Of a stretch of 64,000 nt of DNA, positions 34,919 to 57,452 are shown one piece after another. Each line of letters starts with the position of its first letter. Position 1 is the stretch's first letter. Under the pieces are notes generated by a model. It was given only the letters and a program-made list of their open reading frames with translations, was not told where the DNA came from and did not search any database. The stretch is taken from contig SUUS01000001.1 in assembly GCA_015062395.1 (NCBI GenBank), positions 65,429-129,428 on the forward strand. Direction: 5' to 3'. Made by a program: the position numbers and the translations under genes. The DNA comes from Alphaproteobacteria bacterium. GTDB taxonomy: Bacteria; Pseudomonadota; Alphaproteobacteria; CAAHEQ01; UBA3637.

Positions 34919-36637
34919 TTATTGATATTTTTTCATTTCTTCTTCAATCCATTTTTGGGTAAAAGATACAACTTGCTCTAATGGAAGCGTTCCTTTTTCA
35001 TCCGTACCACGAATTTTATATTCGACCATTCCGTTTGCCAAGGCTTTTGGTGCAACAATCAAACGTAAAGGAATTCCCATCAAATCAGCTTCTGCAAATT
35101 GAGGACCTGCACCCAAATTACGATCGTCGTATAAAACTTCAATGCCCAGATTTTCCAATTCAGAATAAAGTTTTTCTGCAGTTTCCCGAACGCCTTCTTT
35201 ATCCATTTGAAGAGCATTTATTTGAACTTGCCATGGGGAAATTGACAAAGGCCATATTGGACCATAATCATCGTGACTAGCTTCAATAACTGATGCCAAC
35301 GTTCTGCCAACACCGATACCATAACATCCCATAATCGGTGTTTGTTCATCGCCATTTTCATCGGTATAGGTCAAGTTCATTGCTTTACTGTAGCGAACAC
35401 CTAACTGGAAAATGTTTCCAACTTCAATACCTCGAACCATTTTTAAAGGAGCACCACATTTAGGGCATTTTTCCCCTTCTTGAACACAGGCGATATCTGC
35501 TATAATAGCGTTTGGAACATCTCTTGATAAATTAAAGTTGTACATATGATAATCAGTTTTATTTGCTCCACACAACAAATTTGCAGTATTGGCAACAGAA
35601 TTATCTACGACTTGGATACAATCGTGCAAACCGATACCACTTGCAAAACCAGGAACAGCCCCTATAGATTCGATTTGCTCATCATTTGCAAATTGGAATG
35701 TTTCTTTTAAAACTTTTGCTAATTTACATTCGTTTACTTCTATATCGCCACGGATAGTCACTGCAACCATTTTTCCACTATCTGTGATATAAAATACCAT
35801 TTTGGCAGTTTGTTCTGGGTGTAAATTAAGTAAAGCACAAACATCTTCAATTGTTTTTACATTTGGCGTATGAACTTCTTGCAAAGGTTTAGGCTCTTCA
35901 TTATTGTATTTGAGCTGACCAGAAGATGCAACTTCTTCGTTTGCAACATAATCGCATTTAGAACACTTTGCGATTTTATCTTCACCAGCGTCACAAATTA
36001 AATCGTATTCATGTGAAACCTTTCCCCCCATCATGCCATTATCTCCTTCAATAGCGACAACTTGAGGGATACCACAACGGGCATAAATACGCGCATAAGC
36101 ATCTGCACAACGGGCATAGTATTGATTTAAATCTTCTTGCGTTCTGTGGAAAGAATAAGCATCCTTCATTGTAAATTCACGAACACGAACCAATCCACCA
36201 CGAGAACGAGCCTCATCACGGAACTTTGTCTGAATTTGATACAGCATAAACGGATATTCTTTATATGAAGTAATCTCACTTCTAGCAATAGCAACACACG
36301 CTTCTTCATGCGTCATTGCTAACAACATTCCATGTTTATTTCTGTCTTGAAAACGCAACAATTCAGATTGAACAGAATCATATCGACCCGTTTCGTCCCA
36401 TAATTCCCTGGGCAAAACAACAGGCATTTTGATTTCTTGTCCTTCAATCGCGTCCATTTCTTGACGAACAATGTTTTCAATTTTTTGAGAAATACGAAAA
36501 GCTGGTGGCAACATCGAATATATACCGTTCGCGACGGGTCGGATATATGCACCACGTAATAAATAAATGTGGCTGATAAGTTGCGCTTCTGTCGGTTTTT
36601 CCTTATAGCGACGACCAATTAATTTGCTATTTCTCAT
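34919..36637 (-). CDS. proS: Proline--tRNA ligase, bacterial type with full INS editing domain (572 aa)
   Basis: Class II motifs (FRDEARSRGGLVRVREFTMKDAYSF motif 2), 572 aa like E. coli-type ProRS; sits next to the conserved plsY-dprA-topA block. Confidence 0.9.
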   Translation of the reverse strand: MRNSKLIGRRYKEKPTEAQLISHIYLLRGAYIRPVANGIYSMLPPAFRISQKIENIVRQEMDAIEGQEIKMPVVLPRELWDETGRYDSVQSELLRFQDRNKHGMLLAMTHEEACVAIARSEITSYKEYPFMLYQIQTKFRDEARSRGGLVRVREFTMKDAYSFHRTQEDLNQYYARCADAYARIYARCGIPQVVAIEGDNGMMGGKVSHEYDLICDAGEDKIAKCSKCDYVANEEVASSGQLKYNNEEPKPLQEVHTPNVKTIEDVCALLNLHPEQTAKMVFYITDSGKMVAVTIRGDIEVNECKLAKVLKETFQFANDEQIESIGAVPGFASGIGLHDCIQVVDNSVANTANLLCGANKTDYHMYNFNLSRDVPNAIIADIACVQEGEKCPKCGAPLKMVRGIEVGNIFQLGVRYSKAMNLTYTDENGDEQTPIMGCYGIGVGRTLASVIEASHDDYGPIWPLSISPWQVQINALQMDKEGVRETAEKLYSELENLGIEVLYDDRNLGAGPQFAEADLMGIPLRLIVAPKALANGMVEYKIRGTDEKGTLPLEQVVSFTQKWIEEEMKKYQ

Positions 36638-39862: not shown

Positions 39863-41041
39863 TTGAAAAAATGCTTCATTTTAAATGCCATCGTATTAAT
39901 GGCAGTTGCCCCTGCAATGGCAGCAGATTATGGCGTAGATGTGACGGAAACCAAAACATACACAGAAACATCTTTTGATGGAACTGTTGCTGGTATTTAT
40001 TCTGGTACTGGAAAAACAGGTACTTTTACAGCTGAAGACATCGTAATTAAAGACACCGAAAGAGGAATTTATGCTGTAGGCACTGACTCTAAAGTGATTA
40101 TTGGTAGCGAATCGGAATTTACCGACAGTTTAACTATATCGAACGTATCTAACAGAGGTATCAGAGCAGAAAAAGGTGCTGAAGTAGATATTTATACTGA
40201 CGATGTCTCGATAAGTGCTGGTGATGACGTATATGCATTACATGTTCGGGGAACGACAAGTACAAATCAAAAAGACGAATCAGACATTGTCACATTGATT
40301 TCCATTAATGCAGAAGATGTAAATTTAACCAGTAAAAATGTTGCTGCTGTTATTGTAAATAATGCAAGTATAAAACAAGATAAAAACAATTCTCCTACGT
40401 CAAAAATTAGTATTGTAGCAGATAATATCAATATTTCATCAGATTCCATAGCACTTTCAACAATGAGTGAAGGAATTATTGAATTAACAGGAAATACTGT
40501 TTTAAACGCACCAGATGTAATTTCTGCTCGTGGAGAATCTACAATTAACATAAATACAACAGACGCAACAAAAACATTAAAAATGGATGGAAACATCAAC
40601 TTTAGTTATAACAATGCGACATCAAAAAGTGGTATTGACGCAAATGTTAACGTAGCGTTAAACGGTACTGAGTCTTATTGGTCTGGAAATACAACAGTTA
40701 ACTGGGATGTTAAACCAGAAAACGAAAAATTGATTGTCTCTAATGCGACTGTTTCATTGAATGAAGGCGCTACTTGGAATGTTGCAAAGATTGAAGAAAC
40801 GGATACACTAAGACAAAACGCATTGAATAACTTAATTGTAAACAAGGGAACTATTTCTGTTGGCACAGGCGCAAAAGCTTGGGTTGAAAATATGCAAGTT
40901 AATGGTAATTTAACCTTAAACGGTTCTGTTACAGCAGATTCCGTTGTTTTTGCGAATAATTCATCCTTAACAACAACATTATTAAAAGATACTGCCATTA
41001 TTACAGCAAATACTGTAGAAGTTGGTGAAAATTCTATTTAA
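39863..41041 (+). CDS. Autotransporter passenger-domain fragment (TTG start in track; part of disrupted gene)
   Basis: Signal-peptide-like LNAIVLMAVAPAMAADYG then T/S/N-rich beta-helix repeats. Confidence 0.4.
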   Translation: MKKCFILNAIVLMAVAPAMAADYGVDVTETKTYTETSFDGTVAGIYSGTGKTGTFTAEDIVIKDTERGIYAVGTDSKVIIGSESEFTDSLTISNVSNRGIRAEKGAEVDIYTDDVSISAGDDVYALHVRGTTSTNQKDESDIVTLISINAEDVNLTSKNVAAVIVNNASIKQDKNNSPTSKISIVADNINISSDSIALSTMSEGIIELTGNTVLNAPDVISARGESTININTTDATKTLKMDGNINFSYNNATSKSGIDANVNVALNGTESYWSGNTTVNWDVKPENEKLIVSNATVSLNEGATWNVAKIEETDTLRQNALNNLIVNKGTISVGTGAKAWVENMQVNGNLTLNGSVTADSVVFANNSSLTTTLLKDTAIITANTVEVGENSI

Positions 41042-41388
41042 ATATCTCGAACGGTACAGGAACATACGCATTCATCGATGCTCAATTAACTGGAGATTTT
41101 TTAAATACTTTATATAACTTAGATGCAACAACAGAACAAGGAAAACTTATTGTATCTGAAAAATCTGCAGAAGATATTGCAAGTAATACAGGTATTTCCA
41201 CTGATGCGGCGGCCACAATTTCTGGATTAGCTGGTTCAGATAATGAAAAAGCTCAATCTATTGCAACCTATATTGAAAGCGAAATTAACTCCGGAAATAC
41301 TGATATCGTAGAAAAGATTACCAACAACATTAATCCGACTTCAAATCCTGTTGTTCAATCTGTATCAACAGAAGTTAATGGGCAAATT

Positions 41389-42213
41389 ATGAATTTAGTT
41401 GGCGCTCGTTTAGCTCCTGCAACAGGACGTTCTGCAGGTGACTTTACAGGTGAATTTGGTGGTTTATGGGCTAAAGGCTTATACAACCGTTCAAAACAAG
41501 ACGGTCAATTCCACAGATACACAAAGGGCGTCGCAATGGGTGCTGATGTTATCTTTGACGAAACATTCACGTTAGGGGTTGGTTATGCTTACAATACAAC
41601 AGACGTCAAAGCCGATGCAAGAAAGACTGACATTAAAGGTCATAACTTCTTTGCTTACGCAGAATATCAACCAAACAACTGGTTCATGAATGCTGCAGTA
41701 AGTTATAGCAAAGCCGATTATACAGAACATAAAGAATTAGTCGGAGAAGAAGCTAACTACAATGTTGAAACTTACGGAGCTCAAGCAATGACTGGATACG
41801 ATTTTGCAGTTGGTTTAACACCTCAAGTTGGATTAAGATACTTGCATGTAAGACAAGATTCTTATAATGATGGTCTAACTTCTGTAAAAACAGAAGATAC
41901 TGACTTATTAACGGCTGTTGCAGGCATCAATTTTGCGAAAGATATGAAAGCATCAATCTTTACATTTACGCCAGAACTTCGTTTGGCTGCAACTTATGAT
42001 GTTGTTTCAGATGGAACAGAAGCCAATGTTATATTAGGAAATGCATCTTATACTGTTAAAGGTCAACGCTTACCTCGTTTTGGTGTCGAAACAGGTGTCG
42101 GTGTTCAAATGAATGTTGCCGATCGTCTTAACGTTAACGTTGATTATGATTTAGGTGTTCGCAGAGATTATATGAGCCATACAGGTACTGTATCTTTGAA
42201 ATACAACTTCTAA
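41389..42213 (+). CDS. Autotransporter beta-barrel translocator fragment (frame open from 41029; no own RBS)
   Basis: Autotransporter beta-domain pattern with C-terminal aromatic (..LKYNF). Confidence 0.4.
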   Translation: MNLVGARLAPATGRSAGDFTGEFGGLWAKGLYNRSKQDGQFHRYTKGVAMGADVIFDETFTLGVGYAYNTTDVKADARKTDIKGHNFFAYAEYQPNNWFMNAAVSYSKADYTEHKELVGEEANYNVETYGAQAMTGYDFAVGLTPQVGLRYLHVRQDSYNDGLTSVKTEDTDLLTAVAGINFAKDMKASIFTFTPELRLAATYDVVSDGTEANVILGNASYTVKGQRLPRFGVETGVGVQMNVADRLNVNVDYDLGVRRDYMSHTGTVSLKYNF

Positions 42214-42414
42214 TCATTGTTATAAAAAAGAAAAGTCTATGGTTGTGAAATCTGGCTCGAAGGCCAAAATTTAATAGTTCGTGGAAAAATAGCCTTTTTA
42301 GGAAGAAATCAAAAATAGCTCGCAAATAAAGATTTTAAATCAGAAGAAAATATAGACTTGATACCAAAGAAACCAAAAATAAAATAAAAAAAATGAAAAA
42401 AATAAAAAAAGGTA

Positions 42415-42443
42415 TTGACAAGCATTTTTTTATTGTCTATAAT
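42415..42443 (+). promoter_or_regulatory. Perfect consensus sigma70 promoter for tRNA-Pro(TGG)
   Basis: TTGACA (42415-42420) - 17 nt - TATAAT (42438-42443), 10 nt upstream of tRNA 5' end. Confidence 0.75.
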
Positions 42444-42453
42444 GCCTTTTATT

Positions 42454-42530
42454 CGGAGCGTAGCTCAGTCTGGTAGAGTACTTGGTTTGGGACCAAGGTG
42501 CCGTAGGTTCAAATCCTATCGCTCCGACCA
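42454..42530 (+). tRNA. tRNA-Pro (anticodon TGG)
   Basis: 77 nt cloverleaf folded by hand: acceptor CGGAGCG/CGCTCCG, anticodon stem CTTGG/CCAAG loop TTTGGGA, T-arm GGTTCAAATCC, A73, CCA encoded. Confidence 0.9.
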
Positions 42531-42537
42531 ATATAAA

Positions 42538-42567
42538 AAAGCGGAAGTTTATACTTTCGCTTTTTTT
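42538..42567 (+). terminator. Rho-independent terminator after tRNA-Pro(TGG)
   Basis: gcggaagt-ttat-actttcgc hairpin then T7. Confidence 0.75.
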
Positions 42568-43058
42568 GTTGTCCAATTCCCCTGCAAAGCCCTAGGACAG
42601 CCAACTGCTGAAAAGTGATTTTATACCAAAATCGATGTGGTTGCCGAGATTTTTCCAAATTGATATATACTTTTGCCCGAATATATATACCTTGTGCAAT
42701 GTGATTTTTTCGCCAGAGCCACTTGACCGTAAGTTATTGTTTTTGAATAATTGATTATAATGGTATGACATTAACTTTCCGAATCTTGCCAAGCAGTGGT
42801 TGGTTTAGAAACCCAAAAACTGATACCACAATTTGCACACACCTCTAAAAGCCTTATTTTATAAGGAGTTTAAATTTTTTATAACTTATACACATGGTGT
42901 TTGGGGCATATAAAGAGATTTTCATTTTTTTTGAAAAAAATGACTATTTTCTTGCAATTTTAGGTAGAAGTCGTTAAAATGTGACGGATTATAATTTTAT
43001 GCTGATAAATGAGGTGTTTTCATGGCAGACGATATTCAAATTCAAAAAATGGACGGCA

Positions 43059-43178
43059 TCACCTTTTTTTCAAGCTTTTTGTGATTGCTTCAATACCCGC
43101 TTTTACAGCGCGGTCAGCATCGGCCTTGGTTAATCCTGCTGTTTTAGCAATAGCTTCAACTAATTCTGTTTTATTCAT
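43059..43178 (-). pseudogene. Remnant of HU/IHF-family DNA-binding protein gene (first ~39 codons intact, then frameshift/decay)
   Basis: Minus-strand translation MNKTELVEAIAKTAGLTKADADRAVKAGIEAITKSLKKR* with AAGGAAA RBS; matches HU N-terminus (MNKTELV..IA...L.K)...; stop within poly-A tract; downstream frames do not resemble HU. Confidence 0.45.
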
Positions 43179-43322
43179 TGTATTTTCCTTTCTTTATATA
43201 TAAAGTTAAATGAAGGCTCATGATACCTTCATTTAGTATTAGAGAGAATTTAGATGGGTATGTCAAGAGGAAAATTAATTATACCAATAATCTGCATTAA
43301 GAGTGGCCAGTAATCTTTTTTC

Positions 43323-43351
43323 TTGACAAAAAAACAAAAAAGTGATATAAT
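43323..43351 (+). promoter_or_regulatory. Perfect consensus sigma70 promoter for second proS
   Basis: TTGACA (43323-43328) - 17 nt - TATAAT (43346-43351); RBS agagagagg before ATG 43394. Confidence 0.7.
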
Positions 43352-43393
43352 ACGACATCGTGTTTTAAACATAAAAAGAGAGAGGCTATAAAA

Positions 43394-44908
43394 ATGACTT
43401 TAAAAAATACAAGAGCGAGCAACTATCCTGAGTGGTATCAGAATGTCATAACTGCAGCTGATATGGCAGAAGTATCTTCTTCGCCAGGATGCATGGTTAT
43501 TAAGCCTTGGGGGTATGGGATATGGGAACGTATTCAACGGGTTCTAGATGATAAGATCAAAGAAACAGGTCATGAGAATTGTTACTTTCCTCTATTTATT
43601 CCTTTAAGCTATTTTCAAAAAGAAGCAGAGCATGTTGAAGGTTTTGCTAAAGAAATGGCAATTGTTACTCATAGTCGCTTAACTATGCAAGATGGCAAAT
43701 TGACACCTGATGGAAAATTGGAAGAACCTCTTATTGTTCGTCCTACCTCTGAAACAATTATTGCGGATTCGTTCTCAAAATGGGTCAAATCATACAGAGA
43801 TTTGCCAATTATGATAAATCAATGGGCAAATGTTGTCCGTTGGGAGATGAGACCAAGAATCTTTTTACGAACAAGAGAGTTTTTATGGCAAGAAGGTCAC
43901 ACTGCACATGCTAGTTATGAGGAAGCGGAACAAGAAGCAAAAACCATGTTGAATGTGTATTCTGATGTGGCACGAGATGCTTTGGCTATGCCTGTTATAA
44001 AAGGACGCAAGCCCGAGCATGAAAAATTCCCAGGCGCTGTTGATACATATTGTATAGAAGCAATGATGCAGGATGGTAGAGCTTTACAAGCTGGTACCTC
44101 GCACTTTTTAGGCCAAAATTTTGCCAAATCAGCTGATATTAAGTTTCTAGGTAAGGATGGGAAACAACAATATGCATACACAACCTCTTGGGGTGTAACG
44201 ACACGTCTAATTGGTAGCTTAATTATGACGCACGCTGATGATGAAGGAATGGTCGTTCCTCCAAAGATTGCACCACATCAAATTGTTATCGTCCCTATCA
44301 TCAAAGATAAAGCTCAAAGAGAGGAAGTAATGTCCTACGTGATGCGCTTGTATTCTGCTTTATCTAAACAGAGCTATGATGGCGAAAAAATTCGTGTAAA
44401 AGTTGATACAAGAGACAAGGAATCTGTAGACAAAATGTGGGAGTGGACACGAAAAGGTGCCCCCATTGTATGTGAGGTTGGACCTCGTGACGTAAAAAAC
44501 AATGGTTTAATGGTCAGAACAAGAAATAAGATCAACACCCCAGAATGGAAACAAGTTGTTCAGTTTGATGATTTTGTTTCATCAGCTTCTAAGAGGTTGG
44601 AAGATTTCCATATGGATTTATATAACGCTGCGAATACTCGTTTACAACAAAATCAAAGAACAGATATTACAACGGCAGAGGAAATGCAAGCATATTTTGC
44701 GCAACAAAACTCTTGGGTAAACGGTCAAGGGCAAAAGGTAGCTTTTGTCCGTGGCAAATGGTCTGAAGATCCAGAAAGCGTTGATAAAATGAAGGAAATG
44801 AAAATTTCAATTCGCTGTATTCCTGAGGATCAATCTCAGAAGGAAGGAAATTGCCTTTTGACTAATAAAAAAGCGAAACTTGATGTTATTTATGCAAGAT
44901 CTTATTAG
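43394..44908 (+). CDS. proS: Proline--tRNA ligase, archaeal/eukaryote-like type (504 aa, C-terminal Tyr)
   Basis: Class II ProRS motifs (IVRPTSETII, FLRTREFLWQEGHTAH), no INS insertion, C-terminal domain ending ...IYARSY typical of archaeal-type ProRS. Confidence 0.9.
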   Translation: MTLKNTRASNYPEWYQNVITAADMAEVSSSPGCMVIKPWGYGIWERIQRVLDDKIKETGHENCYFPLFIPLSYFQKEAEHVEGFAKEMAIVTHSRLTMQDGKLTPDGKLEEPLIVRPTSETIIADSFSKWVKSYRDLPIMINQWANVVRWEMRPRIFLRTREFLWQEGHTAHASYEEAEQEAKTMLNVYSDVARDALAMPVIKGRKPEHEKFPGAVDTYCIEAMMQDGRALQAGTSHFLGQNFAKSADIKFLGKDGKQQYAYTTSWGVTTRLIGSLIMTHADDEGMVVPPKIAPHQIVIVPIIKDKAQREEVMSYVMRLYSALSKQSYDGEKIRVKVDTRDKESVDKMWEWTRKGAPIVCEVGPRDVKNNGLMVRTRNKINTPEWKQVVQFDDFVSSASKRLEDFHMDLYNAANTRLQQNQRTDITTAEEMQAYFAQQNSWVNGQGQKVAFVRGKWSEDPESVDKMKEMKISIRCIPEDQSQKEGNCLLTNKKAKLDVIYARSY

Positions 44909-44913
44909 AAAAA

Positions 44914-45573
44914 ATGAGCAAAATTTTTCTTTATCATGTAGATAAATCAAAAATTGATGAGTCTCAGCTTTCTGTTCTGGAGTCTATTTTGTCAGCAACA
45001 GAAAACAAAAGATTTAAAAAGATAAAAATGATAGATGCGAGAAAGAATTTTATTCTTTCTCGTTTTCTGATTAATAAGGCATTAATGAATTTCAATTGTG
45101 CGCAAAGATTTCATATTGGTAGAACTATATATGGGAAACCATATTTATCTCCAAATCCTAAAAATTTAAAAATATCAATAAGTCATACGAGAGATATTAT
45201 TTGCCTTTTAATTGCAAAAAATATAGAGTTTATAGGTGTTGATATAGAGGAAAAAAACAGAAAAATAAATAAAAAAGGTATTATAAATTTTCTGTACTCT
45301 CCTGATGAAAAATTGTATCTTAAAACAAAAGATTTGTATAAAAATTTTTTTAAATATTGGACCTTTAAGGAGGCATTTACGAAAGCTCTTGGAAAAGGAC
45401 TTTTAATTCCATTTAATCAAATATCCTTTTCCAAAAAATACCAAAAGTATTATGTTACCTCTGTGCCTATTGATATAAACTCTAATACAACAGGGTTCAT
45501 AGTATGTTTAGATAAAAATGAAAGATCAGCCGATATTAACATAAATAATGTTATTATAGGAGGGATAAAATGA
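44914..45573 (+). CDS. 4'-phosphopantetheinyl transferase, Sfp/EntD type
   Basis: 219 aa; motifs ISISHTRDIICLL and FIGVDIEE (metal-binding GxD..E), FKEAFTKALGKG (W/FxxKEA-K motif). Confidence 0.75.
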   Translation: MSKIFLYHVDKSKIDESQLSVLESILSATENKRFKKIKMIDARKNFILSRFLINKALMNFNCAQRFHIGRTIYGKPYLSPNPKNLKISISHTRDIICLLIAKNIEFIGVDIEEKNRKINKKGIINFLYSPDEKLYLKTKDLYKNFFKYWTFKEAFTKALGKGLLIPFNQISFSKKYQKYYVTSVPIDINSNTTGFIVCLDKNERSADININNVIIGGIK

Positions 45574-46409
45574 AAAGAATTTGTATTGCGACAGATGAAG
45601 ATAATATCAATGATCCTGAGAATTTACTAATTAGTAAAATTCTTAATGACATGGGAGCTAAAGCAGAATTGACTATTTGGGATAAACAAGAAAGTCTTTT
45701 CAAAGATTGCGACTATGTTTTAATTCGTTCTTGTTGGAATTATCACAAATACCCAGATAAATTTATTCAATGGATAAATTCTCTCAATATTCCAACAATC
45801 AACGCTAAGAGTTTAATCCAATGGAATATTCATAAAAAATATCTTCTTGAGTTAGAAAAACACAATATTGAAATTCCAAAAACATATGTTATTCAAAAAG
45901 AAAATGTAAAAGATTTTAATTTTAATATATTTGATGAATTTGTAATAAAACCAGCAATATCAGCAAGTGGCTATTTGACATATAAATATAATAAAAATGA
46001 TAGTGAAAAGGTAAATTCTTTACTTCCATTGTATTCTTCAGATGTTTTAATACAAGAATTCATTCCGGAAGTAATACAAGAAGGTGAAATATCCTTTGTA
46101 TTTTTCAACAATAGCTTTTCACATGCTGTAAAAAAAATACCTTCACTATCTGATTTCAGAAGTCAAGCAAGATATGGAGGAACTGTTAAAAATTTTATTC
46201 CAAATCAAGCTTTAAAAAATAAGGCAGTAGAAATAGTACAAAAAATCATGGATATCACTAACGAATGCCCTTTCTATATGAGATTAGATGCGGTTTTGAG
46301 AAAAAATAATTTAGTTATAATGGAAATTGAGGCAATTGAACCCAGGCTTTTTTTATCGAATTCAAATTGTGATATCTTTAAAAAAGCTTGGCAATCTATT
46401 CTTCCTTAA
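45570..46409 (+). CDS. ATP-grasp family ligase (RimK/glutathione-synthetase-like)
   Basis: ATP-grasp pattern FVIKPAISASGY...LIQEFIPEV...GEISFVFF; ATGA-coupled to PPTase. Confidence 0.6.
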   Translation: MKRICIATDEDNINDPENLLISKILNDMGAKAELTIWDKQESLFKDCDYVLIRSCWNYHKYPDKFIQWINSLNIPTINAKSLIQWNIHKKYLLELEKHNIEIPKTYVIQKENVKDFNFNIFDEFVIKPAISASGYLTYKYNKNDSEKVNSLLPLYSSDVLIQEFIPEVIQEGEISFVFFNNSFSHAVKKIPSLSDFRSQARYGGTVKNFIPNQALKNKAVEIVQKIMDITNECPFYMRLDAVLRKNNLVIMEIEAIEPRLFLSNSNCDIFKKAWQSILP

Positions 46410-49400
46410 CTGTATCTTCTAAAAGGGATATATACAAAGAAGCCCAGTCTTTAATGGTATTTATATCAAAACGATGAACATGATACCAAAAATTAAAACG
46501 AAGATTGCTTTTCTGCATGTCGACTATCAGAAATAATCCCGCTAATTCTCTTAAGGTTGAATAGTTTAATGTATTCAACAATGGTTCTGAAATGGTTCCA
46601 AGTGTTTCTAAAACTTCTACTTTAGGCCAGACATTGTCTTTTTCTTTGTGATAATTATTCAGCATGATATAGGCATCTGTGAAATAACTTGATCGAGAGA
46701 AATTCAAAAACTTTTCGACATACTTAGGTAAAAGATTCACTGGGTAGTAAGACCTTTCATTCACAAGAGATACAATACTATTAATTTGGGTTATTTGTGT
46801 CATATTAGAAAGAGTTTCATCTAAAGAAATCGGAAGTGGGAATTGTTTAACGAATGGGCCTATTGTTTCTTTAAAATTATCCTCTGTTCGTCCATTGAAA
46901 ACAGTTCCTATTAATAAATTATGTTGTCTTGTTAATTTTACCAATAACTTCGAATAAACAAACAACAATACTGAAAAAACGGATACATGCGCTTTATGAG
47001 CAAATTTATTTAAGGATTCATATACTTTTTCTGAAGAAAAAATGGTATAGCAACTTGACGGATAACACTGTTCAAAAAATTCATCTCCGGTTTTATTTGG
47101 CAAAATTACAGGACGTGCAATACCAGCATATAACCCACCAAAGAAGGCTTCATTTTCCTTTTCTGTCTCCAGTAAAAATTTATGTTGCCAATCTACATAT
47201 TGATCATAGAGAACTGGATTTGGGAGTCTCAAATGTGATTTTTGAAGAAAAGAGGCATAAAATTTTCTTAATTCTTCAACAAATACCGTCACAGATGTTC
47301 CATCGAATGGCAAATGATGCGTAAAAAGAAGACATATAAACTGATTATTATTTAACTTTAAAATTTTTAAAATCCAAGGTGGGGTTTTTGTAATATCAGG
47401 AAAAGAAGATGTTAACGTACATGCTAAATTTTTTATATATTCAGCAACATTTTCTACACCCTTCATATTCACAAAAATACTTTCACTAGAAATGAAATCT
47501 TTTATATTACAAGTTTCATAATGATTATCAACATAACAATGTGTCAAAATTGGATGTCTTGAAATAACCTCTTTTAAGGCGTTCAAAAATGAATTCTTTT
47601 TTAGTTCGCAATGGAAAAGTATTGGTATCAATAAATATCCATATTTAATTCTTTCTAATGCCACCCACCTTTGTTCTTCATATGATAACTTGTTTTCACT
47701 ATTGTTCTTATCCAAGACAATCTCTGTTTTTTCACATAGTTTTTTATCCAATGATTTACTGGAACAATTTTTGATACAAAAGGCTGTTAAATTTCTTAAA
47801 GTTCTTTCTTTAAATACAACACTAACAGGGAATGAAATATTTAACAAATGTCTAATAGCGTTACGTAATTCTATTGCGCTTAAAGAATCAAGTCCCAAAT
47901 CAAAAAGATCATCATCTTTTTCAATATGGCAATTATGTGTATATTTGTCTAAAACTCGAGCAACTTCGGATGAGACAATACTAGGAATGTCTTGAATGCT
48001 GTATTGAGTTAATGTATCCGTGTTCTTTTCCTCAACAGGCAAATAATCTTTTGCTAACAATCTAAAGAACGGGCTATTTTCGAGTTTATATTTTCTTAAA
48101 AAGATATTCCAATTCATAGGTAATAAAATTACCTGTTCTTGTAAACTAAGTATTGATGACATTATCTCATCGAAATCGTTTTTTTTAAGATAAGAATATC
48201 CCTTTTCTTCTAATTTCTGCTGTAGATTCTTGTTTATATCAATAGTTCCTAAGTCCCCCCATGCTCCCCAATTAATACTTAATGCTGGTAATCCCAAAGA
48301 TATCCTATATTTACACACAGAATCCAAGAATGCGTTTGCTGTTGTATAATTAGATTGTCCAGGATTTCCTATTACGGATACAGCGGAAGAAAAGACTACA
48401 AAAAAATCTAACTGTGTATTTAAAGAGAGTTTATGTAAATTCCATACTCCAAGAACCTTTGCCTTTGCAATTTTCTTAAAGTCCTCCATAGTCGTATTTG
48501 TAAAGGATTTATCCTCAATACAACCAGCCGCATGCACAATTCCACCGATATTTTTTATATCAAGTTTTGAAGACAATGCAAAAAACTTGCTCTCATCGGA
48601 AATATCCATACTTATATATTCTAGGTCTAATGTGTCATCAAGCAGCTTTAAAGTTCTTATTTGTTCTATCACCTCATTCTTTTCCCGACGGCCAACTATC
48701 ACAATTCGTTTTGCACCATTTTTAATGAGCCACTTACTGGTTAAAAGTCCTAATGCACCTACCCCCCCTGTCACTAAATATTGTTTTTTAGGAACTATAG
48801 TGAGTTTCCGTTCTGATGATAAAGAAATGGGGGCTAAAGTTGCTTCAAAGACACTTTTCCCGCCTGGATCAATTTGAAAAAAACTAAACGACTTTTGCTG
48901 ACGTATACACGAAGCAATCTTTGAAATAGAATTTTCTGTCAATGCCTTTGCAAAAAAACAAGAGCATTTGATTTCTGAATTTTCAAGACAAATTGTTTTT
49001 AAAAGAGAAACTAGAGATTCATTTAAAAAGTCATTACCAACAAAAATAAACGAAATATTTTCTATTTTCCCCATTAAAAAGGCTTCTTTTAAGGAATAAA
49101 AAACGTTTTTGATCTTATTTAAATAAAGCCTTAAGATATCAGATGAGGTGTAATTCTGCACATCATCGGAAATACTGTCTATAACATATACAATACGTTC
49201 TATTTTCTTCTTAAAAGAATCAAGTTTTTCTTTTAAGAAGAATGAGTTATTTGAAATATCTGTACTTACAAGGAGATTCTTTTCTGATGAGAAGTGTGCT
49301 ATTTGACTTTTATCTCCTATAATTAACGAATTCTCTATATAAGATTTAGAAAAATTAGAAAGCGAAACTGATTCCCATTGAATTTTGTATAAATCGTTTC

Positions 49401-52400
49401 TCCAACTTGCCTTTTGTAATAAATCAACCGGCTCAAGATAATATTTTTTTAAATCAAAAGGATAAGTTGGTAGTTCAATTAATAAACAATTATCTTTCGG
49501 TAGGATATGGTCAAAATTAACGGATATTCCTTTCGAAAATAATTTTCCAAATGCTGAAAGTAATTGTTCTGTATCATCAGTAGTTTTTCTCATCATAGGT
49601 ATATATGTTGCGTTCTGCTCATCATAACATTCTGCAACCATATTAAGAAGCACAGAATTTGGACCTATTTCCAAGAAAATATCAACATCCTTATTTTTTA
49701 AATTATGGATCATATTTTCAAAATTGACAGGTTGAATCATGTGGTTACACCAATAGTCTGAAGATATTTCTCCTGTTTGAATAAAATCCCCCGTTACATT
49801 TGAAAGTAATTTTATAAAAGGATCCTTAAATGAAAATTTGGAAAGATATTTTTTATATACCGCCACAAGGGGATTAGCAACACTTGAATGGCCAAAACTG
49901 CTGTTATCTAATTTTTGTGCTTCAATCTTCTGATCATGTAAAGCTTTAAAAAGTGATAGTATTCTCTCTGTTGGACCAGATACAACCACTAAATTAGGTG
50001 TATTGATAGATGCTATAGATATCTCATTATAGTTTTCCAACAGTTTTTCGACAGTATTTTTATTAGCTCTGATTGCTAACATTTTTGCATGAATTTTTAA
50101 TGAAGTTAACAAAACAGCTCTATGATAAACTATTTGAAGTAATTCATTTAATTTTAGTATACCAGCACAGTAAGCTGCAACGTATTCTCCCAAACTATGT
50201 CCTAATACAAATTTAGGCAAAATTGCCATTTGTTTTAAAATTTCTAGAATAGATACTTCTATGGCTACAATTGCCAGTTGATTTAAAATAACATCTTGTT
50301 CTGAATATTTTTCCTGTTTCCATATTATATCGATTAGATCAAAATCCGTAAATTTCTTTATAATTTTATTACATTCCTGAATCTTTTTCTTAAAAATAGC
50401 ATTTTTCTCATACAGCCTCTTTCCCATCCCAAAATATTGAGATGTATAACCAGAAAAAATAAAGGCAAGCTGTTGTTTTTGTGAGACCTTAAAATCATCT
50501 TTTGTAACAGATGGGAGTTTTAATCGTTTTTCAGTATTTGACAGTTCGTATATCAAACGATCCATTGTATTCGCAACAAAAGAGACCCTATAATCAAAAT
50601 GATATTTCCTCTTTAAAAGTGAATAAGAGATATCCTGTAGACGTAAATCACGATGATTTTCGAAGAAAATTCTATGATTGTGTATTATTTTAACTAAATC
50701 CTCGAATTTCTTTCCAGAAAAAACAAACAAATAAAAATTATTCTTTTGTTTTGTTTGGTTGTTTTTTTTGTGTGAATAACTTTCTAAAATGACATTAGCG
50801 TTAGTACCACCAAGACCAAAGGAATTCACTAAGCAATAATGTTTCTTTGATTTCCAAGGGATCGTTTTATTATTTACATAAAAGGGAGAATCATCCAACT
50901 CCAATAAGGGGTTATTTTTTTTAAAATGAAGTGTAGCAGGTATTTGTTTATGCTGAATACATAAAATTGCTTTTATTATCCCTGCCATGCCAGAAGCCCA
51001 ACCGAGATGACCTATATTAGTTTTTACGCTCCCAATAACGCAATCCCTTTTCCTATTATTACCGAAAACATTTTTTAATGCTTGGATTTCAACTGCATCT
51101 CCAACGACAGTTCCAGTTCCATGTGTTTCAATAAAAGAAATTTTATCTGGCAGTATGTTTGCATCTTTTAAAGCTTGCTGTAATGATCGTGTTTGTCCAT
51201 CAATTGTTGGTGCTAGAAAATTAGATTTCCCATTATTTCCATCATTACTAACACCACTTCCTGAAATAATGGCTAAAATATTATCTTTATCTTTTATGGC
51301 TTTTGATAGTGGTTTTAATAAAACTACTCCTAATCCTTGGGCCATCATCATACCTTCTGATCTTTCATCGAAAGTACGTGTATGGCCATCTGGTGACCAA
51401 GGCATGTCTTTTTGGAAAGTATATTTATGTTTTGATGGGGACATAATGTTTACAGCACCAACTAGTGCCATTTCACATTCTCCATTCAAAAGAGCTTGTT
51501 TTGCCAAGTGAATTGCAACCAACGATGAAGAACATGCAGATTGTACATTAATACTTGGTCCTTCTAACCCCAATTTAAAGGAAACTTTTGTTGGTAAGTA
51601 ATCCTTATCCCCGCCCATCATAACTTGCAAATCCGAAAAACGTTCGAAGAAATACCTATTAGAACGATAATCTAAGTTTGGGTTAAGGTTATTAACAAGA
51701 TAGCTACTAAATCCTTGGGAAGCAAAGACTCCTATCTTTTTAGTCGTATTATTGTTAAGATATCCTGTTTTTTCTAGTAGTTCCCAAGATAATTCCAAAA
51801 ACTTTCGTTGTTGTGGATCCATCATTTCTGCTTCAGTCTTTGAATATCCAAAGAATTCAGCATCAAACAAATTTGCATCATCAATTGTAGATGAACAAAA
51901 TACATCATGCTCAAAGGGATCCAGCATTGACAAATCCTGTGATGGGCCAAAAGATTCGATACTTTCTTTACCAGTTGAAAGAAAATTCCAAAATTCGTCA
52001 GGAGTATGGCACTTAGGAAAATTGCATGCCATTCCTATTACAGCGATTTTTTCTTTTACAGGTTTTCCAAAATCTTGAATAACTGCTTCTTTCCCCTGTA
52101 TTATATTTCCTTTTAAGAGATCAGATACAGCATTAAATGTACTATTTTTTAGTAGCATAGCAACTGGTATTTTTTGCTTGAATGTTTCGAAAATTTTCGT
52201 GTATAGCTGAAGCAAGAGTAATGAGGTTCCACCTAGCTCAAAGAATGTCTTATTTTTGTCAAAGTCGGTTATGTGCAAAAGATCTCGCCAGATTTCTTCC
52301 AACTTAGTCAATTCTGAATGGGTTGTTGTTTCTTTTTTTTCTATATACGTTTGAATTAATACTTTTCTATCCAGTTTCCCTGACGGGGTTCTCGGTAATT

Positions 52401-53811
52401 TGTCAATTACGACAAAATCTTTAGGAGTCATATAATTAGGCACCAGAGTACCAATGGATTGCTTTATATCCAAAATCTCAGTTTTTTCGTTTTTCAAGAC
52501 AATAAAAGCGACAAGGAAAGTGGGCCGATTTTCAGCCATTATCGGACAAACAGCACATTCAAGAACATTTTTATCTTTTGATAATAGGTACTCTATTTCT
52601 GCAAGTTCTATTCTATACCCACTTATTTTTACTTGGTCATCTTTTCGCCCAACGAATTCAAGTTGCTTTTTCTTGTTTAGCTTGACAATATCGCCTGTTG
52701 CATATAGAAGATTTTTTGTGTTTTGAGGATCTGGGATGAAAGATTTATTTGTATCCTTTGGATTATTTACATACCCTTTAGCAATAAACGGAGCACAGAT
52801 AAACAATTCACCCTCCGTAGTAGCTGTAAGTTTTTCATTTAGAATTTTTAACTGTATATTGGATATAGGCTTTCCTATGGGAGGGAGTTTCCCCCACTGA
52901 TTAACATTCTTTGGTAATGTAAACGAAGTGACAACATGGGTCTCACTCGGACCATACTGATTGATTAGACGGCAATGCTTTAGAATTTTAAAAAAAGAAC
53001 GAATTACTGGCGTTATAATCAACTGTTCACCGGCTGTGATTACTTCTTTAAGAGAGGTAGGAAAGGTTTTATTAAGATCTGCGATTTGCGCTATGTAATT
53101 TAACATTACTGCGGGGAGAAAAATCCGTTCAATCTTGAACTTGTCAATTAAGTACAGCAGTTTTTCAGGATCTTTTCTTTCATTTTCTTCAATCAGTACT
53201 AATGAAGCACCCGTACATAAAGTAGAAAAAATTTCTTGAAAAGAAACATCGAAGCTAATTGGGGCAAATTGTAATGTTCTTTTTATCGCAGATTCTTTAA
53301 TTTGCCATGTAATAAGATTTTCAAGAACTGATGTTGGCATAACAACACCCTTTGGAGCTCCCGTAGAACCAGAAGTAAATATAATATAGGCCAATTTACC
53401 AAAACCGTTATTGTTTACGGTTTTATTTCCCCTTGAATTTTTAATTATCTTTTCAAAAAAAACAAACTTTTTATTTCTTTTGTCAATGGTTACATCATCT
53501 GTGATAATTAAATTTGTACCGGATTTTTCCTGCATAAAATTCAAACGCTCGACAGGATAACTCTTATCAAGTGGAACATAAGGGTTTCCAGACTTTAGAA
53601 TTCCTAAAATAGAGATAATTAACTCTATTGATCTGTCAAATAGTACTCCTACTGGTTTCTTATAATTTAATGATTTTATATAACCTGCAACTAAATCTGA
53701 TTTGAAATCTAATTCTCCATAAGTTAGCTCTATACCATCCTTAATAATGGCTACCTTATCGGGAGTCTCGACACAAATCTTCTTAAAATTGTTATATAAA
53801 CTACTTTGCAT
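46396..53811 (-). CDS. Hybrid NRPS-PKS megasynthase: A - T - KS - AT - KR - ACP - C (2471 aa)
   Basis: A domain cores (LTYGEL, LKSGNPYVPLD, YIIFTSGSTGAPKGV, YATGD, GRKDDQVKISGYRIELAEIE, PSGKLDR); T (ELGGTSL, Ser ~530); KS (QSACSSS Cys~760, ETHGTGT, NIGHL); AT (GHSLGE Ser~1206); KR (TGGVGALG, NYTTAN); ACP (LGLDSL Ser~1976); C-terminal condensation domain (HHLPFDG ~2165-2171); no TE. Confidence 0.9.
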   Translation of the reverse strand: MQSSLYNNFKKICVETPDKVAIIKDGIELTYGELDFKSDLVAGYIKSLNYKKPVGVLFDRSIELIISILGILKSGNPYVPLDKSYPVERLNFMQEKSGTNLIITDDVTIDKRNKKFVFFEKIIKNSRGNKTVNNNGFGKLAYIIFTSGSTGAPKGVVMPTSVLENLITWQIKESAIKRTLQFAPISFDVSFQEIFSTLCTGASLVLIEENERKDPEKLLYLIDKFKIERIFLPAVMLNYIAQIADLNKTFPTSLKEVITAGEQLIITPVIRSFFKILKHCRLINQYGPSETHVVTSFTLPKNVNQWGKLPPIGKPISNIQLKILNEKLTATTEGELFICAPFIAKGYVNNPKDTNKSFIPDPQNTKNLLYATGDIVKLNKKKQLEFVGRKDDQVKISGYRIELAEIEYLLSKDKNVLECAVCPIMAENRPTFLVAFIVLKNEKTEILDIKQSIGTLVPNYMTPKDFVVIDKLPRTPSGKLDRKVLIQTYIEKKETTTHSELTKLEEIWRDLLHITDFDKNKTFFELGGTSLLLLQLYTKIFETFKQKIPVAMLLKNSTFNAVSDLLKGNIIQGKEAVIQDFGKPVKEKIAVIGMACNFPKCHTPDEFWNFLSTGKESIESFGPSQDLSMLDPFEHDVFCSSTIDDANLFDAEFFGYSKTEAEMMDPQQRKFLELSWELLEKTGYLNNNTTKKIGVFASQGFSSYLVNNLNPNLDYRSNRYFFERFSDLQVMMGGDKDYLPTKVSFKLGLEGPSINVQSACSSSLVAIHLAKQALLNGECEMALVGAVNIMSPSKHKYTFQKDMPWSPDGHTRTFDERSEGMMMAQGLGVVLLKPLSKAIKDKDNILAIISGSGVSNDGNNGKSNFLAPTIDGQTRSLQQALKDANILPDKISFIETHGTGTVVGDAVEIQALKNVFGNNRKRDCVIGSVKTNIGHLGWASGMAGIIKAILCIQHKQIPATLHFKKNNPLLELDDSPFYVNNKTIPWKSKKHYCLVNSFGLGGTNANVILESYSHKKNNQTKQKNNFYLFVFSGKKFEDLVKIIHNHRIFFENHRDLRLQDISYSLLKRKYHFDYRVSFVANTMDRLIYELSNTEKRLKLPSVTKDDFKVSQKQQLAFIFSGYTSQYFGMGKRLYEKNAIFKKKIQECNKIIKKFTDFDLIDIIWKQEKYSEQDVILNQLAIVAIEVSILEILKQMAILPKFVLGHSLGEYVAAYCAGILKLNELLQIVYHRAVLLTSLKIHAKMLAIRANKNTVEKLLENYNEISIASINTPNLVVVSGPTERILSLFKALHDQKIEAQKLDNSSFGHSSVANPLVAVYKKYLSKFSFKDPFIKLLSNVTGDFIQTGEISSDYWCNHMIQPVNFENMIHNLKNKDVDIFLEIGPNSVLLNMVAECYDEQNATYIPMMRKTTDDTEQLLSAFGKLFSKGISVNFDHILPKDNCLLIELPTYPFDLKKYYLEPVDLLQKASWRNDLYKIQWESVSLSNFSKSYIENSLIIGDKSQIAHFSSEKNLLVSTDISNNSFFLKEKLDSFKKKIERIVYVIDSISDDVQNYTSSDILRLYLNKIKNVFYSLKEAFLMGKIENISFIFVGNDFLNESLVSLLKTICLENSEIKCSCFFAKALTENSISKIASCIRQQKSFSFFQIDPGGKSVFEATLAPISLSSERKLTIVPKKQYLVTGGVGALGLLTSKWLIKNGAKRIVIVGRREKNEVIEQIRTLKLLDDTLDLEYISMDISDESKFFALSSKLDIKNIGGIVHAAGCIEDKSFTNTTMEDFKKIAKAKVLGVWNLHKLSLNTQLDFFVVFSSAVSVIGNPGQSNYTTANAFLDSVCKYRISLGLPALSINWGAWGDLGTIDINKNLQQKLEEKGYSYLKKNDFDEIMSSILSLQEQVILLPMNWNIFLRKYKLENSPFFRLLAKDYLPVEEKNTDTLTQYSIQDIPSIVSSEVARVLDKYTHNCHIEKDDDLFDLGLDSLSAIELRNAIRHLLNISFPVSVVFKERTLRNLTAFCIKNCSSKSLDKKLCEKTEIVLDKNNSENKLSYEEQRWVALERIKYGYLLIPILFHCELKKNSFLNALKEVISRHPILTHCYVDNHYETCNIKDFISSESIFVNMKGVENVAEYIKNLACTLTSSFPDITKTPPWILKILKLNNNQFICLLFTHHLPFDGTSVTVFVEELRKFYASFLQKSHLRLPNPVLYDQYVDWQHKFLLETEKENEAFFGGLYAGIARPVILPNKTGDEFFEQCYPSSCYTIFSSEKVYESLNKFAHKAHVSVFSVLLFVYSKLLVKLTRQHNLLIGTVFNGRTEDNFKETIGPFVKQFPLPISLDETLSNMTQITQINSIVSLVNERSYYPVNLLPKYVEKFLNFSRSSYFTDAYIMLNNYHKEKDNVWPKVEVLETLGTISEPLLNTLNYSTLRELAGLFLIVDMQKSNLRFNFWYHVHRFDINTIKDWASLYISLLEDTVKEE

Positions 53812-54043
53812 GATTCTGAATGAAACTCACAACATCCCCTATCGCTTTCATTTTGGCTATTTCTTCATTTGGAAAAGAAATATTAAATTTTTCTTCCAAC
53901 CGAAAAAATAAATCCATTTTATCTAAGGAATCCACTTCCATTTCTTTAAAAGACATATCACTGGTCAATATCTTATCATGTAAAGCGAACTTTACCTCTT
54001 TTAACGTTTCTTGAACTATTTGAAAAATATCGTTATCACTCAT
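53801..54043 (-). CDS. Discrete acyl carrier protein
   Basis: 80 aa, MEVDSLDKMDL with DSL phosphopantetheine-attachment motif; overlaps megasynthase start by 11 nt. Confidence 0.75.
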   Translation of the reverse strand: MSDNDIFQIVQETLKEVKFALHDKILTSDMSFKEMEVDSLDKMDLFFRLEEKFNISFPNEEIAKMKAIGDVVSFIQNHAK

Positions 54044-55004
54044 TTTTGCCTCCTGTCAATGTTAATAAACAATTACACCAAGAAAAACCCGTTCCAAATC
54101 CAGATAATACAAGGTAATTAGCATCTTTTTGTTTCAGATGTGGCTCTAGGATTAATGGGATTGATGATGAACTCGTATTACCATAATTAGCCGCTTTGAA
54201 TTTTAACTGATTTTCTTTTAGATTCAGGGTCGAAGATAATCTTTCCAGTAGATATCTTGATGGTTGATGACACAAAAACTCAGAAATATCACAAGTATCC
54301 AGTCCGTTTTTTAACAATAAGTTTTTAATTGATGCTGGAATTTCTTTCAACACATTATTAAAGACCATACGACCATCCATTCTTAAAAAATTTTTTTCTA
54401 TTATGGTCTCATAAGAATTTGGCAATGTTCCAAAATCCCAATCTTTTAAAATATATCCTGTTGAAACATCTTTTGTTATATAAGTCACTGTTGCTGCGTC
54501 GCCAAAGAGTAATACTGTATTTTTATCTTTTGGGTCTAGAATCCTCGATAACTGGTCACATGTGAAGAAGAGAGCGTTTTTCAAATGAAGGGTTTTCATC
54601 ATAGATAAAACGGTTAGTAAAGCATGGCAAAAACCAGCACATCCTTGACCGATATCAAAAGTAATACATTTTTTTGATAAACCTATTTTATTATGTAAAA
54701 TCGCGGACATATATGGAGCCTTATGATCTGGTGTTTGTGTTACCGTACATACTAAATCAATATTTTCAATGTCAATTTTGATTTTTTTCTCTAAATCATG
54801 CCATGCAGATAAACACATATCAGCCAAAGTCTGATGTTCTTTTATTTTAGACCTCCTAATTATTCCCAATTTATTTTCTATGAAATCTGGACTTACCTCA
54901 AAAGTTGTTAATAAATCCATATTATTTACATAGTTATCTGGAATATAAGTGCCAATACATTTTATTTTAAAGTTTTGCAAGCTCATCCCTCCTATTGATT
55001 TCAT
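54036..55004 (-). CDS. 3-oxoacyl-ACP synthase III (FabH-like KAS III)
   Basis: Active-site Cys in GQGCAGF, His/Asn region, C-terminal GFGTGFSW. Confidence 0.8.
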   Translation of the reverse strand: MKSIGGMSLQNFKIKCIGTYIPDNYVNNMDLLTTFEVSPDFIENKLGIIRRSKIKEHQTLADMCLSAWHDLEKKIKIDIENIDLVCTVTQTPDHKAPYMSAILHNKIGLSKKCITFDIGQGCAGFCHALLTVLSMMKTLHLKNALFFTCDQLSRILDPKDKNTVLLFGDAATVTYITKDVSTGYILKDWDFGTLPNSYETIIEKNFLRMDGRMVFNNVLKEIPASIKNLLLKNGLDTCDISEFLCHQPSRYLLERLSSTLNLKENQLKFKAANYGNTSSSSIPLILEPHLKQKDANYLVLSGFGTGFSWCNCLLTLTGGKNE

Positions 55005-56067: not shown

Positions 56068-56840
56068 TTTTTGCTCCGAAGTAAATACGTTTTACTCAAA
56101 GTACTTGGCTGTATTTTGGATATTATACTAAAACCAATTTGTTTAATCTCATCCTCTGATACATCTTCGTATAAAAGAGTTGCAGCTTTTTGTGGTAAAC
56201 GTAACAGAATATTAACATTAGTTTTGGCGGTATCTTTAATTTTTAATAATGTTTTTTTCTTATTAGATAGTCCATTTGCTAAAAGTACGATATTTTCATC
56301 CTTATACGAGAAATCAAAGGATCTCTTTTTTATAAACGTGAAATCTTTTGAAATATCTTTGGAGCACGTCTGTTTGATATACGCTTCAGAGGCTTTAAGA
56401 GCTTGTGTATCATAATCCAAACAAACTGGTATAATCCTCTGATAATTTTGTTTAAGTTCAATTAATGTTTCAGGGTGGTATCCACTACCAGCCATAAGAC
56501 AACGTTTCTGGCTGGATAGATCCTTAATAAGATTAAATTCGCAAAGAACTCCAGCATATCCTTCTTTTTCAAGAATGGATATGCTATTTACCTTTTCACC
56601 ATTCAAAAAATCCTTAACCTTGTTCCTTTCTAATTCTTTTATATACTTATTCCATTTTAAAGAAATTTCCTTTTTATCATCAGAAGATAAAGAAGTAAGC
56701 AAGTCAGAGATTTCATTTTCAGATAAACCAATTAAAATCTTCCAAAAATCCTGAAAGACTAATAAGTCAGGTTCAGTGTAATAAGCCTTTAAAGGTATAG
56801 ATAAAACCTTTTGCGTAATTTGTAATATGGACACTCTCAT
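56064..56840 (-). CDS. Hypothetical protein (258 aa), possible SAM-dependent/nicotianamine-synthase-like fold
   Basis: Weak resemblance of CLMAGSGYHPETL and NIVLLANGL to Rossmann-type SAM-binding motifs; in-operon, ATGA-coupled to downstream gene. Confidence 0.35.
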   Translation of the reverse strand: MRVSILQITQKVLSIPLKAYYTEPDLLVFQDFWKILIGLSENEISDLLTSLSSDDKKEISLKWNKYIKELERNKVKDFLNGEKVNSISILEKEGYAGVLCEFNLIKDLSSQKRCLMAGSGYHPETLIELKQNYQRIIPVCLDYDTQALKASEAYIKQTCSKDISKDFTFIKKRSFDFSYKDENIVLLANGLSNKKKTLLKIKDTAKTNVNILLRLPQKAATLLYEDVSEDEIKQIGFSIISKIQPSTLSKTYLLRSKK

Positions 56841-56912
56841 AATTCATACATCAAATCATTCAAACATTTTCGTTTAGTATACTTTAAAATACACCCTAGA
56901 GTCAACAAAAAA

Positions 56913-57440: not shown

Positions 57441-57452
57441 TCTTATCACATT

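Follow-up and report, generated by a model that had tools for sequence, protein, structure and literature searches.

Two full-consensus housekeeping promoters 908 bp apart, very probably serving a tRNA-Pro gene and an archaeal-type prolyl-tRNA synthetase gene, in a gut/rumen alphaproteobacterium

The window analysed here is a 64-kb stretch (~33% G+C) of contig SUUS01000001.1 from an uncultured Alphaproteobacteria bacterium, and our subject is a pair of perfect sigma-70 promoter sequences on its plus strand, one ahead of a gene for tRNA-Pro with anticodon UGG and one ahead of proS2, a gene for an archaeal-type prolyl-tRNA synthetase (ProRS). The 5' part of the region contains topA-dprA-plsY-proS1 (minus strand), slyX-rfaD-msbA, an autotransporter in two open reading frames (ORFs) and tRNA-Pro(UGG). 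The middle part consists of ~470 nt of non-coding DNA, a stub of an HU gene (minus strand), proS2 and the genes of a phosphopantetheinyl transferase (PPTase) and an ATP-grasp protein. The 3' part includes a convergent gene for a 2471-aa nonribosomal peptide synthetase-polyketide synthase (NRPS-PKS) with acyl carrier protein (ACP), KASIII, dehydrogenase and FabA-like genes, and ends with tRNA-Pro(CGG) on the minus strand. Both ProRS sequences of the window occur unchanged in NCBI (MBE6449174.1 and MBE6449182.1), in a metagenome-assembled genome (MAG) labelled "Alphaproteobacteria bacterium"; the nearest species are likewise uncultured members of the class, known from metagenomes of the ruminant and human gut. 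Over the region, seven independent metagenome contigs from this species were at least 99.9% identical, which rules out a chimera; one of the seven (L084), from another sample, spans the region and is identical to the window, and an assembly artefact was rejected.

When both strands of the window were searched for TTGACA-N17-TATAAT, exactly two matches were found, both on the plus strand, at 42415..42443 and 43323..43351, as an earlier first-pass annotation of the sequence had stated. A relaxed scan of the whole 64 kb added six sites with 11 of 12 matches. The chance level was taken from 100 dinucleotide-preserving shuffles of the window, which gave a mean of 0.02 matches, and none of the 100 reached two. 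Both sites have all 12 consensus bases and a 17-bp spacer, the optimum of the 16-18 bp that separate TTGACA and TATAAT in sigma-70 promoters, and both are followed by a gene on the same strand at a fitting distance, the -10 hexamer ending 10 nt before the 5' end of the tRNA in one case and 42 nt before the ATG of proS2 in the other. Two perfect sites within 908 bp, both correctly placed, are not the product of chance. We also considered that one promoter might be a duplicate of the other; this was ruled out, since their spacers (AGCATTTTTTTATTGTC and AAAAAACAAAAAAGTGA) and flanks are unrelated.

According to reviews, natural promoters with the full consensus are almost non-existent (PMC7057261). 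Among 40 species-representative loci of the clade (~439 kb) we found one perfect N17 site, and another in ~116 kb of near relatives, so that the ~555 kb examined from relatives contain two. In the clade such sites are therefore uncommon, roughly one per 100-400 kb, and they are not peculiar to this locus; the rarity claimed for them in the first-pass annotation is to that extent overstated. The near-relative site lies on contig L111 (6587-6615, plus strand), whose ProRS1 belongs to the 88% cluster; it has the form TTGACA-N17-TGaTATAAT and is located 48 nt upstream of a gene for an ankyrin-repeat protein.

The first promoter (42415..42443; TTGACA, 17-nt spacer, TATAAT) is preceded, directly 5' of its -35 hexamer, by a 36-nt A-rich tract at 42377..42412 on the plus strand (aaataaaataaaaaaaatgaaaaaaataaaaaaagg), which is a candidate UP element that might be contacted by the C-terminal domain of the alpha subunit, although in DNA of 33% G+C an A-tract is weak evidence. 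The promoter has no extended -10, as GTC occupies that position, and its -10 hexamer is followed by GCC. The tRNA-Pro(UGG) gene (42454..42530, plus strand) was identified by ARAGORN, scores 66.3 bits with the Rfam tRNA model, and has a C1-G72 pair, A73 and an encoded CCA end. Because transcription usually starts 7-8 nt beyond the -10 hexamer, the transcript is predicted to begin at about 42450-42451, with a 5' leader of only ~3-4 nt. Starting 5 nt beyond the CCA end lies a strong intrinsic terminator (42535..42567) made of an A6 tract, an 8-bp stem with a 4-nt loop and a T7 tract; on the plus strand it folds with -19.2 kcal/mol (z -6.7). The minus strand can form a hairpin as well (-11.9 kcal/mol, z -4.0), with U6 behind it, so the terminator may act in both directions. 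With its own promoter and a terminator directly following, tRNA-Pro(UGG) is a self-contained monocistronic gene. The A-tract, the 12/12 core and the short discriminator would together direct the synthesis of a ~120-nt monocistronic tRNA-Pro(UGG) precursor that ends at the hairpin and T7 tract.

The same layout, an A-tract followed by cTTGnnn, a spacer of 17-19 nt and TAnAAn, recurs at a further tRNA gene of the window and at seven tRNA genes of relatives, eight in all. Their promoters match the consensus at 8-11 of 12 positions, and the distance from the -10 hexamer to the mature tRNA end is 10-19 nt. By this comparison, the promoter of tRNA-Pro(UGG) can be described as a perfected form of the normal tRNA promoter of the lineage. 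In 26 long ORFs the proline codons are CCA (220), CCT (213), CCC (32) and CCG (25); CCA is the commonest, so the UGG isoacceptor serves the most-used codon. Only ~5% of proline codons fall to the CGG isoacceptor, and the promoter of tRNA-Pro(CGG) matches at 9 of 12 positions. We also noticed a perfect 25-bp inverted repeat with a 14-nt loop (57387-57450) directly downstream of tRNA-Pro(CGG), an unusually long terminator-like hairpin.

The second promoter (43323..43351, plus strand) combines TTGACA, the 17-nt spacer and TATAAT with an extended -10, as TG is present at 43343-43344, one base 5' of the -10 hexamer (TGaTATAAT). The predicted 5' untranslated region (UTR) of proS2 is ~35 nt long and folds no better than shuffled sequences, and a Shine-Dalgarno-like motif, GAGAGAGG (43378..43385, plus strand), which is kept in relatives, lies 8 nt before the ATG. 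The mRNA made from this promoter would thus have an unstructured ~35-nt leader and a good Shine-Dalgarno sequence. A regulatory RNA in the proS2 leader or in the spacer between the promoters was ruled out by the unstructured leader and by an Rfam search at E<=1, which returned the tRNA and terminator-like noise only.

For comparison we used, as relatives, the contigs of the closest E-type ProRS homologues (80-89% identical), which represent seven near-relative species. The genes next to proS2 differ from one contig to the next: cstA lies upstream and a metallophosphoesterase gene downstream in L088 (89% identical ProRS), an IS3-family transposase gene upstream and radical-SAM/SPASM genes downstream in L091, and the neighbours are hypothetical genes and uvrC in L094, radical-SAM genes in L102, rsmJ in L104, and DUF192 and SNF2-related genes in L106. 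The DNA homology between the window and L088 starts at 43313, 10 nt 5' of the -35 hexamer, and ends 5 nt past the stop codon. In L088 the promoter reads TTGACA-N18-TGaTACAAT, in L102 TTGACA is combined with TGcTATGAT, and in L104/L105 TGaTATGAT is found without TTGACA. In the upstream alignment of the four closest lineages, the window among them, TTGACA is present in three and TGnTAnnAT in all four. The spacer and leader sequences diverge between lineages while these elements are kept; since the neighbouring genes differ as well, this pattern is that of the footprint of a real promoter, and the proS2 promoter is inherited and travels with its gene. Among the lineages compared, the full set of 12 bases with a 17-nt spacer at proS2 is peculiar to the window species, and its promoter differs from that of L088 by one -10 substitution (TATAAT for TACAAT) and one base of spacer length. 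The second promoter would then be the one that the E-type ProRS gene had ancestrally, perfected in this species by about one substitution, from TACAAT to TATAAT, and a one-base change of the spacer.

Directly after proS2 lie the genes of an Sfp-type PPTase (44914-45573, plus strand) and a DcsG-like ATP-grasp protein (45570-46409, plus strand), both assigned with Pfam and NCBIfam. The gap between the proS2 stop codon and the PPTase ATG is 5 nt, the PPTase and ATP-grasp genes overlap by 4 nt, and the proS2/PPTase junction contains no hairpin and no significant structure. This tight spacing and the absence of a junction hairpin suggest that both genes are co-transcribed with proS2, and the proS2 promoter probably drives them as well. 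Relatives such as L088 and L094 have a hairpin terminator at the end of proS2. In this species the two genes would have been inserted right behind the stop codon of proS2, whose transcript probably reads on into both. A second case of attached accessory genes was seen in L091 (7516-8515), where the proS2 stop codon is followed after 19 nt by the start of a radical-SAM/SPASM gene that has a Shine-Dalgarno sequence of its own.

In our opinion, these results make it likely, with good confidence, that both sites are genuine and independently evolved promoters of the housekeeping sigma factor, which by happenstance lie 908 bp apart in a rearranged region of this gut/rumen alphaproteobacterium. Position, strand and accessory elements fit, and it is very probable that the two sites drive the tRNA-Pro(UGG) and archaeal-type proS genes that they precede. 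They are tuned-up ordinary promoters and no new kind of element. As in other canonical sigma-70 promoters with accessory elements, TTGACA, a 17-bp spacer and TATAAT are joined by an A-tract at the tRNA site and by TG at -15/-14 at the proS2 site, and the promoters are placed directly before a stable-RNA gene and a translation gene; unlike in the usual case, two full-consensus sites are found 908 bp apart and the predicted tRNA leader is unusually short. Such a pair would point to selection for a high supply of tRNA-Pro and ProRS.

Several observations weigh against this interpretation. When the shuffle rate is extrapolated, chance alone would give ~0.6-2 perfect sites per 2-Mb AT-rich genome, and a single site would be unremarkable. 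The conservation of the tRNA promoter appears as a conservation of architecture alone: two scans of metagenome contigs with exact and degenerate patterns retrieved no orthologous tRNA-Pro(UGG) locus, and outward from proS1 homologues the synteny is kept to msbA, after which ankyrin genes and groESL follow and no tRNA. The transcription starts and the strength of both promoters are predictions from the DNA. Within the PPTase ORF there is a 12-bp hairpin with a U-rich run (UUUUCUGAUU; 45037-45063, plus strand; dG -16.5, z -4.4), which may attenuate read-through from the proS2 promoter. Finally, a full consensus combined with an UP element or an extended -10 can slow promoter escape in E. coli, and top output is not guaranteed (bioRxiv 10.1101/207332).

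The last point leads to an alternative, in which the sites are real RNA polymerase sites that are bound too tightly, so that output is moderate or the sites in part act as sinks or roadblocks for polymerase. A reporter-library study in E. coli measured a 29.9-fold range of output among promoters whose -10 and -35 elements are both consensus, and an added consensus UP element could lower expression where the -10 is consensus, possibly via impaired escape (bioRxiv 10.1101/207332). Each promoter in the window adds a third element to a perfect core, the A-tract at the tRNA gene and the extended -10 at proS2. However, the escape data were obtained with the E. coli polymerase, and the alphaproteobacterial polymerase of this host, with its 33% G+C, may differ. 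Furthermore, both promoters are fixed across seven independent population samples, and the proS2 promoter has moved towards the consensus with respect to its nearest relatives, which ill fits a costly, over-tight site at an essential-type gene. We consider escape limitation unlikely. Still, maximal or constitutive output does not follow from a perfect consensus alone; of the very strong and probably constitutive expression proposed in the first-pass annotation, strong expression is plausible, while constitutive or maximal expression is not established, given the 29.9-fold spread.

A second alternative concerns the meaning of the neighbourhood and requires a closer look at the two synthetases. 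The proS2 product (43394..44908, plus strand; 504 aa, ending ...ARSY) is a ProRS of E-type (archaeal/eukaryote-like): it passes NCBIfam TIGR00408 (proS family I) with 490 bits against a cutoff of 437, contains the Pfam domains tRNA-synt_2b, HGTP_anticodon and ProRS-C_1 (PF09180), the last ending in the C-terminal Tyr, and has no INS domain, a tRNA_edit domain not being found by Pfam. Its closest solved relative is the ProRS of Thermus thermophilus (1H4Q, E 1e-129). The proS1 product (34919-36637, minus strand) is a bacterial P-type ProRS with the INS editing domain (TIGR00409, PRK09194). The identities of homologues form parallel ladders, 92, 88, 87, 85 ... 65% for the P-type and 89, 88, 87, 85 ... 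69% for the E-type, and most of the homologues with a named organism are from an "Alphaproteobacteria bacterium". Such ladders suggest that both genes diverged along with the clade, and both types appear to be long-resident in it. For genomes beyond that of the window, their co-occurrence is suggested by the parallel ladders, whose homologue accessions come from different MAG series. The window ProRS2 shows no deviation at the columns that are at least 95% conserved among 118 homologues, while the first 40 control sequences have 0-10 each. The E-type gene, described at first as a second or extra copy, does not look like a recent addition.

The order PPDK...pfk-topA-dprA-plsY-proS1|slyX-msbA is kept in L096, L100 and L111. 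The neighbours of proS2, in contrast, differ in every near relative, and proS2 is the mobile one of the two genes. In a more distant species (L030, 2789-8906) we observed an E-type proS directly upstream of plsY-dprA-topA, in the slot held by proS1 in the window and near relatives, an arrangement that looks as if one ProRS type had taken the place of the other.

The best promoter candidate of proS1, TTGAAA-N17-TATTCT, matches at 9 of 12 positions, and proS2 is predicted to be the better-transcribed paralogue, the opposite of the situation in Bacillus. Bacillus thuringiensis co-expresses a P-type ProRS with an INS domain (BtProRS1) and an E-type ProRS whose C-terminal extension ends in Tyr (BtProRS2); both genes are expressed constitutively and both enzymes charge the P-type tRNA-Pro with G72 and A73, the only type present (PMC11229370). 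The tRNA-Pro genes of the window likewise have G72 and A73. In contrast, Bacillus belongs to another phylum and expresses proS1 ~4-fold above proS2 (PMC11229370), whereas here the E-type gene has by far the better core promoter (12/12 with TG, against 9/12 for proS1), a comparison of promoter sequence alone.

Next to proS2 lies the NRPS-PKS gene (46396-53811, minus strand; A-T-KS-AT-KR-ACP-C) with companion genes at 44914-46409 and 54036-57353. The G+C content of the cluster is 31%, below that of its flanks, and no such cluster is found next to proS2 in the seven near-relative species. The pocket residues of the adenylation domain read D-V-Q-F-I-A-Q-V-(V)-K in an alignment anchored on the PheA sequence; they resemble DVQ[L/F]IAHVVK, the Stachelhaus code for proline, and the domain may be proline-specific. 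The tRNA-Pro(UGG) and tRNA-Pro(CGG) genes (42453-42531 and 57452-57530) are inverted with respect to each other, 81% complementary, and bracket a 14.9-kb segment with proS2 and the cluster.

This arrangement could mean that co-expression of tRNA-Pro and the E-type ProRS was selected by the adjacent NRPS-PKS, with ProRS2 acting in self-resistance by target overexpression or protecting translation from competition for proline. In a more specific form, proS2 with its perfected promoter would be the lead gene of a PPTase/ATP-grasp operon which, with the bracketing tRNA-Pro genes, forms a module that protects from, or supplies, a proline-derived product acting on prolyl-tRNA synthesis. Indeed, proS2 leads what looks like a proS2-PPTase-ATP-grasp unit, and the inverted tRNA-Pro genes stand at both ends of the segment. 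The adenylation-domain pocket lies near the proline code, and among the solved relatives of the domain are the proline modules TycB1 and GrsB1. Natural inhibitors of ProRS are known (PMC11229370). Mining for self-resistance genes looks for a second genomic copy within ~10 kb of a core biosynthetic gene (10.1101/2020.06.01.128595), and proS2, which ends at 44908, has the KS domain of the NRPS-PKS gene ~6 kb away, proS1 being the other copy. In this respect it resembles the synthetases of known clusters, such as the mupirocin IleRS, the borrelidin ThrRS and the agrocin 84 LeuRS AgnB2, where a second aminoacyl-tRNA synthetase gene lies within 10 kb of a PKS KS domain.

On the other hand, proS2 does not travel with the cluster, unlike those genes, and its product has no unusual substitutions. 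The E-type gene with a near-consensus promoter is present in at least seven near-relative species, and the cluster is adjacent to it in none of them. The dual ProRS set looks clade-wide, and ProRS2, with zero deviations at the conserved columns, gives no support to a divergent resistant variant. The mark of a self-resistance gene that co-occurs with the cluster and diverges from housekeeping orthologues is not found in proS2. The best structural match of the adenylation domain is a different module, LgrA module 2. The pairing of tRNA-Pro with proS2, which the first-pass annotation had implied, does not recur either: a tRNA-Pro gene before an E-type proS was never found in the seven near-relative species or in ~39 more distant species sampled, so the adjacency is species-specific. 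Selection of the co-expression by the cluster is, in our judgement, quite unlikely, and the complete proline module very unlikely.

That one or both sites are chance matches without promoter function in AT-rich intergenic DNA is hardly credible: A/T-rich hexamers are frequent in a genome of ~33% G+C, and a generic scan of 40000-46000 found 27 promoter-like sites against 24.0 +/- 5.1 in shuffles, no excess, but two 12/12 matches were seen where 0.02 were expected in the window, both are on the right strand and at the right distance from a gene, the proS2 site is conserved in relatives and the tRNA site shares the tRNA promoter layout of the lineage.

We return to the preferred reading, that of two independently evolved promoters in a rearranged region, for which the surrounding DNA is also informative. 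The spacer at 42568..43036 has no recognisable gene, RNA family or repeat according to Pfam, Rfam and the relatives. No translated piece of it gave a Pfam match at E<=1 and no homology was found in any locus of a relative compared, and hidden pseudogenes were rejected on these grounds. It is followed by a truncated and frameshifted remnant of an HU (Bac_DNA_binding) gene at 43037..43178 on the minus strand, with a 39-codon ORF (43178->43059) that contigs of the same species carry as an annotated PF00216 protein of 39 aa; with one frameshift corrected, it matches positions 1-47 of 90 of the Pfam model (E 6e-10). The remnant has an 11/12 promoter on the minus strand (43238..43266, TTGACA-N17-TCTAAT), divergent from that of proS2, and a hairpin in its 5' UTR (43235-43207; dG -12.5, z -4.8). 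This promoter, the extended -10 of proS2 and the terminator behind the tRNA gene had been overlooked in the first-pass annotation. The remnant may still be transcribed leftwards, over ~670 nt of non-coding DNA, to the terminator on the tRNA side. Apart from it there is no other recognisable coding content, and the ~750 nt between the promoters are non-coding, as had been noted at first.

Six of the seven same-species contigs (L081-L083 and L085-L087) end within the spacer or HU stub, at window positions 42933-43270, which suggests either strain variation at the junction or a repeat elsewhere in the genome, such as an intact HU gene. On the other side of the tRNA gene, the passenger and the beta-barrel of the autotransporter are in separate ORFs (39863-41041 and 41389-42213, plus strand) with a gap of ~350 nt, and the gene is probably a disrupted one. 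The split autotransporter, the HU stub and the ~470 nt of unmatched DNA form a mosaic of decayed pieces, and the species-specific adjacency of tRNA-Pro and proS2 lies within it. A genomic island targeted to the tRNA gene was also considered and rejected: between 41000 and 58500 the 3' end of the tRNA is not repeated in direct orientation, only the inverted second tRNA-Pro being found there, and none of the 14 ORFs scanned between 39863 and 58809 has an integrase domain.

Our results leave the current understanding of transcription and aminoacylation unchanged. They correct the annotation, in that the E-type ProRS gene would be a resident of the clade that has kept its own promoter while its surroundings were rearranged again and again, and not a recent copy tied to a tRNA gene. 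If the proposed reading is true, the locus offers two of the rare natural housekeeping promoters with the full consensus, one of which can be compared with orthologues of 9-11/12 in sister species. It would be a small natural experiment on the drift of promoters towards and away from the consensus, and both sequences might serve as strong promoter parts for this uncultured clade of gut/rumen Alphaproteobacteria.

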